The notes under the pieces: generated by a model
Seen by the model: only the letters and a program-made list of their open reading frames with translations
What the model was told of the DNA's origin: nothing
Database searches by the model: none
In this document: one piece after another, positions 34,225 through 40,651 of the stretch
Position numbering within the stretch: the stretch's first letter is position 1
Layout of the letters: the number at the start of each line of letters is the position of its first letter
Assembly: GCF_044324875.1 (NCBI RefSeq)
Contig: NZ_CP172185.1
Reading direction: 5' to 3' (one strand)
DNA length: 64,000 nucleotides
From: Escherichia coli
GTDB lineage: Bacteria > Pseudomonadota > Gammaproteobacteria > Enterobacterales > Enterobacteriaceae
Made by a program: the position numbers and the translations under genes

Positions 34225-36195
34225 TCAGAACGTATACTCGATACCTGCCCAGAAATTGCGACCTTCTTCAATAAACCCTTCACTGTAGGCATATTTGGTA
34301 TCAAACAGGTTATTGACCGACGCATTGACGCTGAAGCCATGACCTAAGGTGTAATCGGCTCGAATGTGGGTCACCGCAAAACCGGCGGCTTTTTGTGAAC
34401 CGTCACTGTTGCTGTAGCTGGAGGAACGCGCCTCTTCCGACAGCGTTACGCTTAACGGCTCCCACGGTTTGAGAGTCATCCATGCGGTCATTGTCTGCGT
34501 TGGCAGATCGGTTATCTTGCCGATGTCTTTGCGTTTGGCGTCAGCGTGGATCAGGGCGTAGCTCAATCCTACATCCAGTATATTGCTGATTTTCCCCTTA
34601 ATACCGGCATCCAGACCGCTGTAATCCACCGTGCCGCTGTTCTGATTTTGAATGGTATCGGCATCGATATTGTGCGAGAGGATGGCATCACTCACCCGGT
34701 TATAGTAAACGCTGACCTCAAACCCCCAGTCGTGCGTGAAGGCACCATTCCAGGTTAAATCCACCCCGCGCGCGCGTTCCGGTTTGAGCTGCGGGTTAAC
34801 AATCGCTATCTGGTTATACGCAGGTTTGGACGTGGTATAGCGTTCTTTCAGCGTCGGAAAGCGTGTGCGGTCATAGTACGAAAGCGCCAGCGTGTCTTCA
34901 TTGGCAAAGTGGTATTTCCCCATCACCTGCCAGTTAAAAGCTGACTGATTGTTGTCGTCATAATGGGTGATGCTTCCATCTTTCTCATGTTTTTTCGCTT
35001 CTACGCTATCGCGCCAGTCATAGCTGATTCCAGCCACGACATCGACATTATCGGCAGCAGCCCATTGATATTCACTGGCGAGCGACCAGGTACGATCTTC
35101 ATAGCGATCGTAAGCGGCGTGCGGCGCACCTTTTTCCCGGTGTACGTCATCTTTCCAGTTAACGGCAAACGACAACAGATCGTTTTCACGCACATCGGCT
35201 GCCAGTTGTAACCCGGCACCGTCGCTGTAATCGGAATAATGGCTGTAGCTGCCTTTTTTATTTTTCAAATCAGCCAGCGAGTTGTACATCATTAGCGTAT
35301 TTTCAAAGGTGTCGCGATACAGCCGACTTTTCAGGGTAAAACGATCGTTTAGTTGGGTCGTTCCCTGATAATAAAAACTTTCTTTGTCATACTCTGGCCA
35401 CTGCCAGTAGCGTGATTTCTGACCACTATTTCCACTGTATGGCGGGTTATCTTTTTCACCATCCTGCTTAATGTAAGTCAATGTGTATTCATCGTTTTCG
35501 CGTGGTGTAAAACCGAGCTTCACAATGCCGCGTTTATCATCAGCCGATGAATTAATCATCTTGCCGTGTTTGCCTGCAATATCATTATTTACACCATGCG
35601 GCAGGCCGAGAAAATCCTGCTTTAGCTGGCTACCGCTGACTTGCAAATACCCCAGATCGCTGCTGGCGGCAAATGAAGCATGCATATCGTAGGCATTGTC
35701 CTGGCTACGGCTCCATCCCTGGCGATATCCCAGATTTGCTTCCAGAGGTTTTGTTGGCTTCTGGGTGGTGATATTAATGGCTCCGCCCATCTGATTAGGC
35801 CCCTGAAGCAGCGACGAATACCCTTTGGAAACTTCAACTGCCCCCAAATTGTTGGTCAGAATCCGCGCCAGATCGAGGTTGCCGTCATAGGGAACATAAA
35901 TGGGCACACCGTCGAAATAGACCGGCACCTGACGACTATCAAAGCCACGAACTTTGACCTGTTCTTCGTTGCGGCTACCTGACTTTTGCAGCACCACGCC
36001 GGGGACGACACTTAATGCCTGAGCGACATTCTGTTTATCCAGGGCCTTCATGGTGGGTTGATCGAGAACGGTGGTCGTCGTCGATGATACCGGACTGGAC
36101 CATACGGTCAGCGTGTCACTCTCCTGAGCCGCTACGGCCTGCTGGGTAAAGGCAAGTGATAATGCTGTGCAGAGATAACGTTTTTTGAGTCTCAT
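34225..36195 (-). CDS. TonB-dependent outer-membrane receptor (about 656 aa)
   Basis: Signal peptide, TonB-box-like DTLTVW, plug-domain motifs, C-terminal ...NFWAGIEYTF; last gene of a six-gene operon. Confidence 0.85.
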   Translation of the reverse strand: MRLKKRYLCTALSLAFTQQAVAAQESDTLTVWSSPVSSTTTTVLDQPTMKALDKQNVAQALSVVPGVVLQKSGSRNEEQVKVRGFDSRQVPVYFDGVPIYVPYDGNLDLARILTNNLGAVEVSKGYSSLLQGPNQMGGAINITTQKPTKPLEANLGYRQGWSRSQDNAYDMHASFAASSDLGYLQVSGSQLKQDFLGLPHGVNNDIAGKHGKMINSSADDKRGIVKLGFTPRENDEYTLTYIKQDGEKDNPPYSGNSGQKSRYWQWPEYDKESFYYQGTTQLNDRFTLKSRLYRDTFENTLMMYNSLADLKNKKGSYSHYSDYSDGAGLQLAADVRENDLLSFAVNWKDDVHREKGAPHAAYDRYEDRTWSLASEYQWAAADNVDVVAGISYDWRDSVEAKKHEKDGSITHYDDNNQSAFNWQVMGKYHFANEDTLALSYYDRTRFPTLKERYTTSKPAYNQIAIVNPQLKPERARGVDLTWNGAFTHDWGFEVSVYYNRVSDAILSHNIDADTIQNQNSGTVDYSGLDAGIKGKISNILDVGLSYALIHADAKRKDIGKITDLPTQTMTAWMTLKPWEPLSVTLSEEARSSSYSNSDGSQKAAGFAVTHIRADYTLGHGFSVNASVNNLFDTKYAYSEGFIEEGRNFWAGIEYTF

Positions 36196-36220
36196 AGAAT
36201 AAATTCCGTTTAACAAAGAA

Positions 36221-38652: not shown

Positions 38653-39629
38653 TGGCGACCTCCGCGTAACAACAAAAACAGGAAAAACGGTGCACCAACA
38701 AAAGCGGTCAGAATGCCAAGTGGGATTTCTGTTGTTCCAATGCTGCGTGCCAGCGTATCGGTAAGCAGGAGCAGAATCGCGCCAGTACACATTGCCATGG
38801 GCAACAGCTGCTGATGGTTATGACCGGTCAACAAGCGAGCAATGTGCGGAACGACCAGGCCGACCCAACCAATTATGCCCGCTATTGCTACCGTGCTGGC
38901 GGTGATTAGTGTGGCGCAGACAATTAATCCAAAGCGCAGACGTGTCACGTTCAGTCCCAGCGAACGGGCTTCGTCGTCGGAAAGCGTGAGTAAATTCATG
39001 CGCCAGCGGAGAAAAAACAGGGGCAAGGAGCCTATGAGAATGATCGGTGCAGCATAGCAGAGATCGCGTAAGGTCACGGTGGACAGCCCCCCCAGCAACC
39101 AGAAGGTAATTGACGGTAACTGGGTGTAAGGATCGGCCAGCGTTTTTATTAGCGATATCCCCGCTCCGCACAACGTTCCTAACGCAATGCCTACCAGCAC
39201 CAGGGTTAAGATCGGATCGTGGCGGGTCACCCGACGCGTAATCAACCAGACGCCCGCGACCACCATCAGCCCGCCGCAAAATGCGTACAGCTGGATGTAA
39301 ACAATGGATAATCCCCACAGGATTGCCGCGCAGGCACCAAGTCCGGCACCGGCGGAGACGCCTAAAATATCCGGTGACACTAAGGGATTACGGAACATTC
39401 CCTGATAGGTGGTTCCGGCCCCTGCCAGCGCCGCGCCCAGAAACAGCGCAGCAAGAATACGCGGCACGCGGATTTGCCAGAAGACAATTTGTTCCTGCAC
39501 AGGAACATTTTCTTGACGAAGAATGAGCGCCAGCAGTTGCTGTATATCGAGATGATAAGCCCCACTTACGGCGGCAAAAGTGATACTGATAGCTGCCAGC
39601 AGCAAAATACATCCGTTTACGGTTCTCAT
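38649..39629 (-). CDS. FecCD-family ABC permease (326 aa)
   Basis: Polytopic membrane protein, typical FecCD/BtuC-like sequence; stop overlaps the ATPase start (GTGA). Confidence 0.85.
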   Translation of the reverse strand: MRTVNGCILLLAAISITFAAVSGAYHLDIQQLLALILRQENVPVQEQIVFWQIRVPRILAALFLGAALAGAGTTYQGMFRNPLVSPDILGVSAGAGLGACAAILWGLSIVYIQLYAFCGGLMVVAGVWLITRRVTRHDPILTLVLVGIALGTLCGAGISLIKTLADPYTQLPSITFWLLGGLSTVTLRDLCYAAPIILIGSLPLFFLRWRMNLLTLSDDEARSLGLNVTRLRFGLIVCATLITASTVAIAGIIGWVGLVVPHIARLLTGHNHQQLLPMAMCTGAILLLLTDTLARSIGTTEIPLGILTAFVGAPFFLFLLLRGGRQ

Positions 39630-40651
39630 TAGCTCGTCACCAATTTTTGATAGTCGGCGTCACTTAATGGGCAATGCCAGAACAGTTGGGCGTAATGCTG
39701 CATGTCACTTTTAAACTGGCGATTGATGGCGGGATCCAGCCAGGCGTGAAGTCTGCGTAATCCCAGAAGACGGTTGATTCCCGGCGGGGCATCCAGCCAG
39801 CCAAAGGGCAGGCCACTTAAAAATAAGATGCGTTGTTCCGCAACCGCTTTCACGCCCTGCCAGAGAGGATCACGACGAATAAAATCTGCAGTAACGGCCT
39901 CCTGAACCAGAATAATATCCGGCTGCCAGCGCAGGAGATTTTCCATGGAAACCTGTGTCAGACCGTGGCGATCGGCTATTTGCGCGACGTTATGCAAACC
40001 TAATAATTCCGCCGCCTCGGTATGCAACGAACCCTGTAAGCCCGTTTCCAGCCCTCGAGGACCGCGCGCAGCATAAAAGCTGAGGTTAGCGGCGGGTGAG
40101 GTGGCGAATGCCTGAGCTTCACCAACGAAGCGGCTGGCGAGATTGGCTTGTTCTGCGGCGCGGTGCTCTTCGCCTAACGTTTTGCCAAGCGTTGTTAACT
40201 GTTCTGCTGATTGTTCCAGTTTCCCGTTAAGCAATAACCAGGGTATTTGTGTCTGTTCGCTAACCTGCCGTGCCTGGGAGATCCAGGTTTCATCCGTATT
40301 GCCGCAATCAACGACCAAATCGGGATGTAACGCCATAAGCCCTTCCAGCGAGAGTGTGCTGGCGCGCCCGGCGAGTCGTCCCAGCCTGGGTAACTGGCGA
40401 ATGTGCTCTGGCAATGGAATTAATGCCTGACGGGCAAAATCAAAAGAGGAAAAACCGACCATTTTTTCTGGCGCGACAGCCAGCAATAGCAAATCGGCGG
40501 GCGCACCTGCGCTGACGATGCGTGTAATGTTTTGGGCTTCGGGAAGCGTCAGTGAGGCCCAGAATTTGACTGATTGTGCAAAAGAAGGCAGATGATGCAG
40601 GAACAACGTCGACGCAAGAATCTGTGTAAACCTCCGTCTGGTTAGTGACAT
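39629..40651 (-). CDS. periplasmic substrate-binding protein (cluster A-2 siderophore/cobalamin-type) with Tat signal (340 aa)
   Basis: N-terminal RRRFTQ twin-arginine motif; first gene of the operon. Confidence 0.75.
   Translation of the reverse strand: MSLTRRRFTQILASTLFLHHLPSFAQSVKFWASLTLPEAQNITRIVSAGAPADLLLLAVAPEKMVGFSSFDFARQALIPLPEHIRQLPRLGRLAGRASTLSLEGLMALHPDLVVDCGNTDETWISQARQVSEQTQIPWLLLNGKLEQSAEQLTTLGKTLGEEHRAAEQANLASRFVGEAQAFATSPAANLSFYAARGPRGLETGLQGSLHTEAAELLGLHNVAQIADRHGLTQVSMENLLRWQPDIILVQEAVTADFIRRDPLWQGVKAVAEQRILFLSGLPFGWLDAPPGINRLLGLRRLHAWLDPAINRQFKSDMQHYAQLFWHCPLSDADYQKLVTS

Follow-up and report, generated by a model that had tools for sequence, protein, structure and literature searches.

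A TonB-dependent uptake operon of Escherichia coli under a predicted ModE operator, with a probable role in molybdenum acquisition

The closest characterised relative of the importer considered here is encoded by the mol cluster of Haemophilus influenzae (HI1469-HI1473; PDB 2NQ2, 3PSA), in which a molybdate/tungstate importer, molABC, has modD (HI1473) adjacent to it (PMC4031551, PMC3928620). The H. influenzae cluster and the E. coli operon both comprise a FecCD permease, an ATPase, a class III Peripla_BP_2 protein and a neighbouring modD. The H. influenzae cluster, however, has neither a TonB-dependent receptor nor a methyltransferase, and its gene order (modABC-like genes, modD, molA, molB, molC, HI1469) differs from that of the E. 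coli operon. Added molybdate lowers transcription of the mol cluster 10-fold (PMC4031551). MolBC-A is described as a low-affinity system; MolA binds molybdate weakly and deleting mol causes no defect when molybdate is low (PMC4031551), which sits awkwardly with a role in scavenging.

ModABC, the high-affinity molybdate transporter of E. coli, is unlike the operon: it is an importer of type I, its binding protein belongs to class II, and it has no outer-membrane component of its own. The ModE regulon was defined in K-12, which lacks the operon. The same three-compartment architecture (TonB receptor, Peripla_BP_2 protein, FecCD permease and ATPase) is found in BtuB-BtuFCD, FhuA-FhuDBC and Hmu, but these systems have a Fur box or a B12 riboswitch where the operon has a predicted ModE box and embedded enzyme genes. 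A dedicated outer-membrane step for molybdenum also occurs in another Gram-negative organism, P. aeruginosa, where ModA secreted by the T6SS docks on IcmP (as cited in PMC11734730); the machinery of that route is entirely different, with no Mol-type importer, ModD or methyltransferase. The Cnt operons for opine metallophores (staphylopine, pseudopaline) likewise carry enzyme genes inside a metal-importer operon. We rejected a Cnt-type identity for the present operon, since none of its six genes encodes a CntL nicotianamine-synthase-like enzyme, a CntM opine dehydrogenase or an exporter.

The operon lies between ymgE and treA in a 64-kb window, which is the whole stretch of E. coli DNA that was analysed, and consists of the following features.

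34225..36195, minus strand: TonB-dependent receptor gene (ORF 34225-36216/36195), 656 aa
36221..37075, minus strand: ModD gene, 284 aa
37072..37884, minus strand: SAM-dependent methyltransferase gene, 270 aa
37894..38652, minus strand: MolC-like ABC ATPase gene, here a pseudogene with an in-frame TGA at codon 56
38649..39629, minus strand: FecCD-type (type II) ABC permease gene, MolB-like, 326 aa
39629..40651, minus strand: periplasmic substrate-binding protein gene (Peripla_BP_2, class III), 340 aa
40676..40699, no strand assigned: predicted ModE operator, a perfect palindrome CGnTATATA-N6-TATATAnCG with 0 mismatches
40717..40722, minus strand: candidate -35 hexamer TTGACA, read from the sequence, 17 nt upstream of the operator
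34249..41021, no strand assigned: operon segment absent in K-12, from blastn junctions and alignment

The initial annotation had described a receptor and ABC-importer operon with two enzyme genes inside it, and this arrangement holds. The six genes lie at the coordinates given there: five appear in the list of open reading frames, and PGAP annotates all six, with identical ends, in two near-identical genomes, L001 (99.7% identical) and L002 (98.1%, O157:H7). The ATPase frame 37894-38652 is not open in the window; it is interrupted by a TGA, which the initial annotation had missed. The tight junctions that had been claimed are present: from the binding-protein gene to the receptor gene they are a 1-nt overlap, a 4-nt overlap, a 9-nt gap, a 4-nt overlap and a 25-nt gap. 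The layout does differ from fec, fep, fhu and btu, as had been remarked, and the operon does stand in place of ycgY, with blastn junctions and alignment placing a 663-bp ycgY segment in K-12 where segment 34249..41021 stands here; K-12 still has the final ~24 nt of the receptor gene. The operon is accessory, being present in ~39-40% of complete E. coli genomes and absent from K-12.

The predicted operator reads, on the plus strand, CGCTATATA-TTTACA-TATATATCG, and the ATG of the binding-protein gene lies 25 nt downstream of it. It is the single match to the operator pattern in the 64-kb window (40676-40699, 0 mismatches), and L001 and O157:H7 L002 carry an equally perfect copy. The same palindrome pattern matches the modA operator region of K-12 with 2 mismatches and the region upstream of K-12 moaA with 1 mismatch, and in H. 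influenzae box-like sites precede molA by 31 nt and the modABC-like genes by 35 nt. We searched 49 species loci carrying all six genes (967 kb), counting as a box any site with at most 2 mismatches of 16. The pattern is present in 47 of the 49, upstream of the binding-protein gene (40 loci), of the receptor gene (22 loci) or of both, and all 62 matches fall at those two positions, with 0 elsewhere in the 967 kb. Every locus with a ModD-receptor gap of at least 121 nt has the receptor-proximal box (22/22), and none of those with a gap of at most 98 nt has it (0/27). Shuffled controls gave 0-2 box matches per 1.4 Mb, and changing the spacer of the pattern to 5 or 7 gave 0 matches. The sequence around the box has otherwise diverged between orthologous loci. 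Two distant loci that we searched lack the E. coli-type box, and other taxa may use other motifs. The predicted operator is new here and is conserved across genera, and we infer from it both binding of ModE and repression; the E. coli modA operator has the same palindrome at a similar distance from the start codon (~20-25 nt upstream), which is consistent with repression.

If the candidate -35 hexamer is used, the -10 region would fall inside the left half-site of the operator. TTGAC(A/T) recurs at a similar distance upstream of orthologues, in regions that have otherwise diverged. A consensus promoter scan did not list the proposed promoter, because its -10 would be non-canonical. Since the palindrome overlaps or abuts this putative promoter, occupancy by ModE would be expected to shut the operon off.

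Among solved structures, the best relative of the permease is MolB (HI1471, 2NQ2_A; 222.8 bits, 41.4% identity), followed by FhuB at 175 bits, and the best-scoring ATPase among the ABC importers in the PDB match list for the ATPase is MolC (HI1470, 2NQ2_C; 126.6 bits, 37.1% identity). The binding protein is further removed. It carries a twin-arginine signal, whereas that of MolA is Sec-type, and in a Foldseek search with it the top match is the unassigned structure 4PAG, followed by MolA (3PSA). Of the characterised structures MolA is thus the closest, and it has the same fold (TM 0.67-0.69), but the identity is only 25% and the family of the E. coli protein has invariant motifs of its own, with many polar and aromatic residues, that are not found in MolA, and it may therefore bind a different ligand. 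Its distant relatives occur among tupABC-like, modABC and modE-like genes (L096) and beside xdhC (L099). The receptor has a signal peptide, a TonB-box-like DTLTVW and a terminal YTF, all read from the sequence, and several TonB receptor models match its plug and barrel, so that it qualifies as a TonB-dependent transporter; its orthologues carry Pfam Plug and TonB_dep_Rec. Against the models of named receptor families its scores are in every case far under the cut-off. It lacks a FecA-type N-terminal extension, and no close solved structure was found for it.

The assignment of the first enzyme as ModD-like survives profile search, with 498.4 bits against a cut-off of 178.85 for TIGR01334 over residues 2-278 of 284. 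The protein is cytoplasmic, has the quinolinate phosphoribosyltransferase (QPRT) fold, belongs to a family associated with molybdenum transport genes and is 46.6% identical to H. influenzae HI1473. An identity as NadC was rejected (133.5 bits against a cut-off of 198.4), the active-site residues being changed: alignment with M. tuberculosis QPRT shows the TRK, HR, E-x-D and D motifs retained, K172 replaced by Phe163 (invariant in ModD), D173 by Ala and R105 by Lys94. ModD occurs within modABC-type operons in Thermovibrio, Desulfurobacteriaceae, spirochaetes, Alcaligenaceae and Yersinia alsatica, and in the nif cluster of Zymomonas modE adjoins the ModD gene, with two TonB receptors alongside (PMC8594446). 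The ModD of the R. capsulatus modABCD operon is likewise a full-length member of TIGR01334 tied to molybdenum transport genes; E. coli ModD, unlike it, has a methyltransferase and a TonB/type II route as its partners. An R. capsulatus modD mutant reportedly has only a mild phenotype (TIGRFAM description). The second enzyme is a cytoplasmic class I SAM-dependent methyltransferase that resembles small-molecule methyltransferases and matches only generic methyltransferase families in Pfam; its top profile match, which is below threshold, is a corrinoid-protein-associated methyltransferase.

The initial annotation had left the substrate of the operon open, and our literature search found no paper that characterises the operon or assigns it one; the ModE-type operator and the kinship with H. 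influenzae mol nevertheless narrow the candidates to molybdenum/tungsten. The reading that we favour, with a probability of roughly 0.65, is that the operon is a molybdate-repressed, TonB-dependent acquisition system for molybdenum and probably also for tungsten. With molybdate plentiful in the cytoplasm, molybdate-bound ModE would sit on the palindrome at 40676-40699 and keep the operon off, and when molybdenum is scarce the operon would be transcribed. The 656-aa receptor would then concentrate a molybdenum or tungsten species in the periplasm with energy from TonB, the Tat-exported class III binding protein would pass it to the MolBC-like type II ABC importer, and ModD and the small-molecule SAM methyltransferase would act in the cytoplasm, downstream in molybdenum handling. 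What is transported, and in which direction and order the steps run, is our reconstruction from the sequence. Among the limitation conditions proposed in the initial annotation (iron, molybdate or other metal), the sequence supports molybdate.

A difficulty for the favoured reading is that porins let through solutes as small as molybdate, and that for free oxyanions no established TonB-dependent transporter is known. Chelates or cofactors are the usual cargo of TonB receptors and of Peripla_BP_2/FecCD importers, which lends some weight to the idea that the cargo is a molybdenum or tungsten complex, either a metallophore-type chelate or a molybdenum-containing small molecule of host or microbial origin. 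We regard this as possible but clearly less probable than the favoured reading. ModD would in that case phosphoribosylate the ring nitrogen of an aza-aromatic carboxylate, with the methyltransferase alongside it, and the ligand would be either dismantled, freeing the metal, or made; control by ModE would still apply. That MolA binds free molybdate weakly (PMC4031551) is a hint that the true ligand of this family may be something other than the oxyanion, and the invariant polar and aromatic residues of the binding protein that are missing from MolA point the same way. So do the embedding of two enzymes in the operon, which the initial annotation had emphasised, the resemblance of one of them to small-molecule methyltransferases, and the retention in ModD of most QPRT catalytic motifs, with the change of K172 to Phe suggesting a different heteroaromatic substrate. 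Against this, ModD is found in ordinary modABC oxyanion operons, the cassette has no exporter and no obvious biosynthetic set, and no ligand is known. The gene sets of other taxa weigh against it as well: in Shewanella the importer and receptor genes lie under a perfect box and ModD is absent, and Edwardsiella has only the methyltransferase-ModD pair, also under a box, without a dedicated importer. The initial annotation had suggested that the imported substrate is modified or that a small molecule is made, which may be so; the Edwardsiella pair and the presence of ModD in plain modABC operons argue against a tie between the enzymes and any one imported ligand. In Intestinirhabdus the same treA-emtA site is occupied by methyltransferase, ModD and receptor genes, under a box, but the ABC genes are missing, and this recombination of modules, each under the box, fits a shared simple currency such as an oxyanion. 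It is possible, though not likely, that enterobacteria have a pathway, energised by TonB, that is dedicated to one particular molybdenum or tungsten species, for example a gut or soil chelate or complex, whose ligand ModD and the methyltransferase process or make through phosphoribosylation and methylation of an aza-aromatic carboxylate. If true, this would be a ModE-controlled 'molybdophore' system, the two proteins would be a previously unrecognised enzyme pair, and ModD would gain a function.

The operon is probably not an iron system. Uptake of an iron chelate (siderophore, haem or citrate), with the AT-rich palindrome being something other than a ModE site, would agree with the PGAP name 'iron ABC transporter', with domain families common to Fec, Fhu and Hmu, and with weak sub-threshold matches to siderophore and haem receptor models. 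These matches, however, are all far below cut-off (siderophore 127 against 223 bits, haem 126 against 317), as are those to FecA, FepA and CirA; a scan for Fur boxes with at most 3 mismatches gives none near the operon and a single one in the window, at 51715. The conserved upstream element is a ModE-type palindrome, the closest characterised importer is MolBC and not Fhu or Hmu, and the constant partner is ModD, all of which makes an iron cargo improbable.

We give equally little credence to a cargo that is controlled by ModE and contains neither molybdenum nor tungsten, such as a nutrient or cofactor for a molybdenum-sparing response, for instance a pyridine- or pterin-type compound that is taken up and phosphoribosylated. 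The strong ModE box would be expected under such a scheme, as would the phosphoribosyltransferase fold of ModD with its PRPP-side motifs kept, and the binding-protein relatives that adjoin xdhC in L099 are next to a gene for a Moco chaperone. The characterised relative of the importer, on the other hand, binds molybdate and tungstate (PMC4031551). ModD and the relatives of the binding protein cluster with molybdenum and tungsten transport genes and not with salvage genes, and no candidate compound is known. Uptake of a corrinoid (B12-type) compound by BtuB-like and BtuCDF-like parts is least likely of all: it would suit a receptor of about the size of BtuB, the best NCBIfam match of the permease (an archaeal-type BtuC model) and the sub-threshold corrinoid-associated match of the methyltransferase, but BtuB models reach only 70-80 bits against cut-offs of 600-836 (80 against 600 for the B12 receptor family) and BtuC 243 against 461, an Rfam search of 33500-41500 with E up to 1 gave no riboswitch or other match, and E. 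coli already possesses btuB and btuCDF.

In the sequenced strain the favoured molybdenum importer would be incomplete. Codon 56 of the ATPase gene is TGA (38485-38487), against TTA (Leu) in both L001 and L002, and this is the sole difference from L001 in the gene. The TGA reflects a nonsense mutation of recent date or else an error in sequencing; taken as it stands, the change of Leu56 to a stop has probably inactivated the importer of this strain, with the inner-membrane step disabled.

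Six genes lie on the minus strand between ymgE and treA, at the intervals that the initial annotation had assigned to a TonB-dependent uptake operon:

39629-40651, minus strand, ORF for a periplasmic binding protein
38649-39629, minus strand, ORF for a FecCD permease
37894-38652, minus strand, ABC ATPase gene with an in-frame TGA at 38485-38487
37072-37884, minus strand, ORF for a SAM methyltransferase (Pfam class I methyltransferase domains)
36221-37075, minus strand, ORF for ModD (TIGR01334)
34225-36195, minus strand, ORF for a TonB-dependent receptor
40717-40722, candidate -35 element (TTGACA), read from the sequence

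The gene junctions are tight, with overlaps of 1 nt and 4 nt and gaps of 9 nt and 25 nt, and all six genes recur with unchanged ends in the NCBI pipeline annotation both of a dog isolate that is 99.7% identical to the window (L001) and of an O157:H7 strain (L002). The ModD-like and methyltransferase calls were upheld by profile searches, ModD reaching 498 bits on TIGR01334 (cut-off 179) and the methyltransferase matching the Pfam class I domains. The receptor sequence includes a TonB-box-like DTLTVW, and PADLOC found no defence family apart from one generic methyltransferase-domain match. The ATPase did not hold up as an intact gene: codon 56 is TGA, where near-identical genomes carry TTA (Leu56), and this is the sole difference from L001 (strain 18KM2445) over the entire gene. 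The TGA reflects either an error in sequencing or a gene inactivated very recently and, barring the former, the in-frame stop probably leaves the inner-membrane step inactive in this strain.

Upstream of the operon, CGATATATA-TGTAAA-TATATAGCG at 40676-40699 is a perfect palindrome that fits CGnTATATA-N6-TATATAnCG, and 25 nt separate it from the first ATG. The pattern matches CGTTATATTGTCGCCTACATAACG, located 20 nt upstream of K-12 modA in the stretch that ModE is reported to protect, and a site with one mismatch is found upstream of moaA too. With at most 2 mismatches, this predicted ModE operator is present in 47 of the 49 six-gene loci, no more than 300 nt upstream of the binding-protein gene in 40 of them and no more than 120 nt upstream of the receptor gene in 22. 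All 62 matches fall at these two positions, with none elsewhere in 967 kb, while block-shuffled controls gave 0-2 matches per 1.4 Mb, and variants with a spacer of 5 or 7 had no matches. The receptor-proximal site occurs in every locus with a ModD-receptor gap of at least 121 nt (22/22) and in none with a gap of 98 nt or less (0/27), and is confined to the genera whose gap could hold a promoter. The sequence around the operator has largely diverged among the upstream regions, but a TTGAC(A/T) element recurs 17-20 nt upstream of it. If TTGACA is taken as the -35 element, the -10 region would overlap with the left half-site, an arrangement typical of repressor binding; the proposed promoter is not listed in a consensus promoter scan of the window. 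Outside the Enterobacterales, a perfect operator stands 20 nt upstream of the cassette in Shewanella, and the E. coli-type site was not found in the loci of two distant relatives.

The permease and ATPase resemble those of MolBC-A, the type II molybdate/tungstate importer of Haemophilus influenzae, and the binding protein is a distant relative of MolA. Among solved structures the permease best matches MolB (HI1471) at 222.8 bits, followed by FhuB at 175, and the best importer match of the ATPase is MolC (HI1470). The closest characterised structure to the binding protein is MolA (HI1472), which ranks second by sequence; in Foldseek, two chains of one unassigned Sulfurospirillum protein rank ahead of it. 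The H. influenzae mol locus was located through a published primer sequence on a metagenome contig (L093), and compared with the E. coli proteins its ModD is 46.6% identical, MolB 41.4%, MolC 37.1% and MolA only 25%. Because of this low identity, and because MolA lacks the four motifs that are strongly conserved in the E. coli binding-protein family (SAGAPAD, GRLxGRASTLSLE, ARGxxGLETGxxGSLHTEA and GLPFGWLDAPPGINRL), we do not claim orthology with MolA at the level of the ligand. Molybdate is the import substrate of MolBC-A, a low-affinity system whose MolA binds molybdate and tungstate with low affinity and whose deletion causes no defect at low Mo (PMC4031551). Added molybdate lowers molB transcription 10-fold, through a factor that the authors left open (PMC4031551), and HI1473, next to the mol genes, is modD (PMC3928620). 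Unlike the E. coli operon, the H. influenzae locus has the importer and ModD without a methyltransferase or a receptor. Operator-like sites precede molA by 31 nt (3 mismatches; L093 5907-5930) and the modABC-like genes ahead of modD by 35 nt (2 mismatches; L093 2870-2893), which points to ModE as a candidate for the factor coupling molybdate to molABC repression in H. influenzae.

Relatives of the individual genes also occur in Mo/W neighbourhoods. Outside the cassette, ModD lies in or beside modABC-type genes in Thermovibrio, Desulfurobacteriaceae, spirochaetes, an Alcaligenaceae MAG that also carries modE, and Yersinia alsatica, where a perfect operator is found upstream; the nif cluster of Zymomonas holds modD, modE and two TonB receptors (PMC8594446). 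A profile search with the binding-protein family returned 557 cluster representatives at E ≤ 1e-30, and three of six neighbourhoods of distant relatives were on contigs long enough to read. One relative (L096) has as neighbours two ModE-like regulators, tupABC-like genes, a modA-like gene and modABC with a TOBE domain, another (L099) shares an operon with the molybdenum-cofactor chaperone gene xdhC, and the third (L098) has no more than a TonB receptor close by. In Edwardsiella, the methyltransferase and ModD form a stand-alone two-gene unit behind the operator, and in Shewanella (L090 6930-12679) a perfect operator is followed by the binding protein, permease, ATPase, methyltransferase and receptor, without ModD. 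The modules recombine freely under one regulator, so that molybdate or tungstate would be the simplest currency for them to share. The Shewanella cassette lies directly downstream of metK, the SAM synthetase gene.

These comparisons are consistent with a ModE-repressed, TonB-energised uptake system for Mo or W, with a Mol-like importer and a ModD/methyltransferase pair in Mo handling, a reading to which we assign a probability of about 0.65. With ample molybdate, ModE-molybdate on the operator would block transcription; under Mo scarcity the receptor would enrich the periplasm in a Mo/W species, which the Tat-exported binding protein would hand to the MolBC-like importer, and ModD and the methyltransferase would then act in the cytoplasm. 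We are more confident of the predicted ModE control than of the overall picture, and less confident of which species is transported. Against this picture stand the weak similarity of the binding protein to MolA and the low affinity of MolBC-A, whose deletion goes without a defect at low Mo; moreover, a free oxyanion should be able to enter through porins, and we know of none that is taken up through TonB. The main alternative is an importer of a Mo/W complex with enzymes that process the ligand, which we regard as unlikely given that ModD is found in plain modABC operons and that the methyltransferase-ModD unit can stand alone; the free-oxyanion model ranks above the chelate model because molybdate or tungstate is the currency that the modules would most simply share. 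The occurrence of ModD in plain modABC operons and the stand-alone unit also led us to downgrade the notion of an imported chelator broken down by the two enzymes. Import of some other compound, Mo-sparing and under ModE control, appears very improbable. Corrinoid uptake is disfavoured, as no riboswitch is found in 33500-41500, where Rfam gave no match at permissive E-values, and the BtuB/BtuC scores are far below the cut-offs. Iron-chelate uptake, as automatic annotation has it, is disfavoured by the lack of a Fur box (≤3 mismatches) at the operon and by family scores that are all sub-threshold. The only Fur-box-like match in the window (51715-51733, minus strand, 3 mismatches, GAAAATGATAACCAGTATC) is unrelated to the operon and sits between a 955-aa ORF that ends at 51254 and a 363-aa ORF that starts at 53191.

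Molybdate is generally assumed to pass the enterobacterial outer membrane passively, and the proposed Mo/W system, if true, would be a second, energised route. In the inflamed gut, molybdoenzyme-dependent anaerobic respiration drives blooms of Enterobacteriaceae, and tungstate serves as its experimental poison; differences between strains in their Mo/W uptake could therefore be of consequence in this setting. The separate parts (ModE regulon, Mol-type importer, ModD family and TonB receptors) are of kinds already known. Their combination, a ModE-controlled TonB receptor with a Mol-like importer and a ModD/methyltransferase pair, was not found in the literature searched, recent Mo-uptake reviews included; an earlier, purely computational prediction of the site may exist, for example in a regulon database such as RegPrecise. 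The routes named in the recent reviews of Mo uptake and metal homeostasis that were consulted are ModABC, sulfate transporters, MolBC-A and the T6SS/IcmP route of Pseudomonas; a TonB-dependent receptor is not among them (PMC7759655, PMC11734730, PMC11672702). The finding makes testable the function of ModD, a question that dates from its first description in Rhodobacter capsulatus, as well as which factor links molybdate to mol operon transcription in H. influenzae (PMC4031551).

Of 5,426 complete E. coli genomes, 2,139 (~39%), O157:H7 among them, have a match that covers at least 80% of the locus. K-12 has a 663-bp segment in place of window 34249-41021, with ycgY as its only gene at this position, as had been claimed. 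Directly after ymgE, the final ~24 nt of the receptor gene, 7-8 codons and the stop, survive in K-12 (L088 ~2030-2056); they are equivalent to window 34225-34248. This retained end suggests that K-12-like lineages lost the operon, or had it replaced by the ycgY segment, and that it was not gained here. A reduced version in Intestinirhabdus alba at the same site (treA ... emtA, ldcA; L029 938-8244), with a perfect operator followed by methyltransferase, ModD and receptor and without the three ABC-importer genes, fits an old residence at the treA-emtA position. The right boundary of the variable segment lies inside the 3' end of treA (window 40982-41021), and since K-12 homology resumes only at 41022, the last ~13 treA codons differ between operon-positive and K-12-type strains.

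The six genes are found in unchanged order in 49 species-level genomes, from Escherichia, Citrobacter, Yokenella, Raoultella, Enterobacter, Klebsiella indica, Serratia, Symbiopectobacterium, Pantoea, Erwinia, Pectobacterium, Affinibrenneria, Yersinia, Proteus, Morganella and Providencia, and the cassette is widespread in Citrobacter, Proteus, Morganella, Providencia, Serratia, Yersinia, Pectobacterium and Shewanella. Scaffold 1 of Affinibrenneria salicis carries the cassette and its flanks twice with identical internal coordinates (L047 143401-164240; L048 910889-931728), reflecting either a large duplication or an assembly artefact, and in both copies the operator is ~250 nt upstream of the binding-protein gene, compared with the usual 20-35 nt. 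The proteins encoded on a 3.2-kb contig assigned to a Collinsella sp. MAG (Actinobacteria; L007) are 98-100% identical to their counterparts from the E. coli operon, and the contig is almost certainly a binning contaminant. In Yersinia enterocolitica both neighbours of the cassette are molybdenum-related, with a MOSC-domain (YiiM-like) gene downstream (L005 10973-11620) and a molybdopterin oxidoreductase gene upstream (L006 125-1819).
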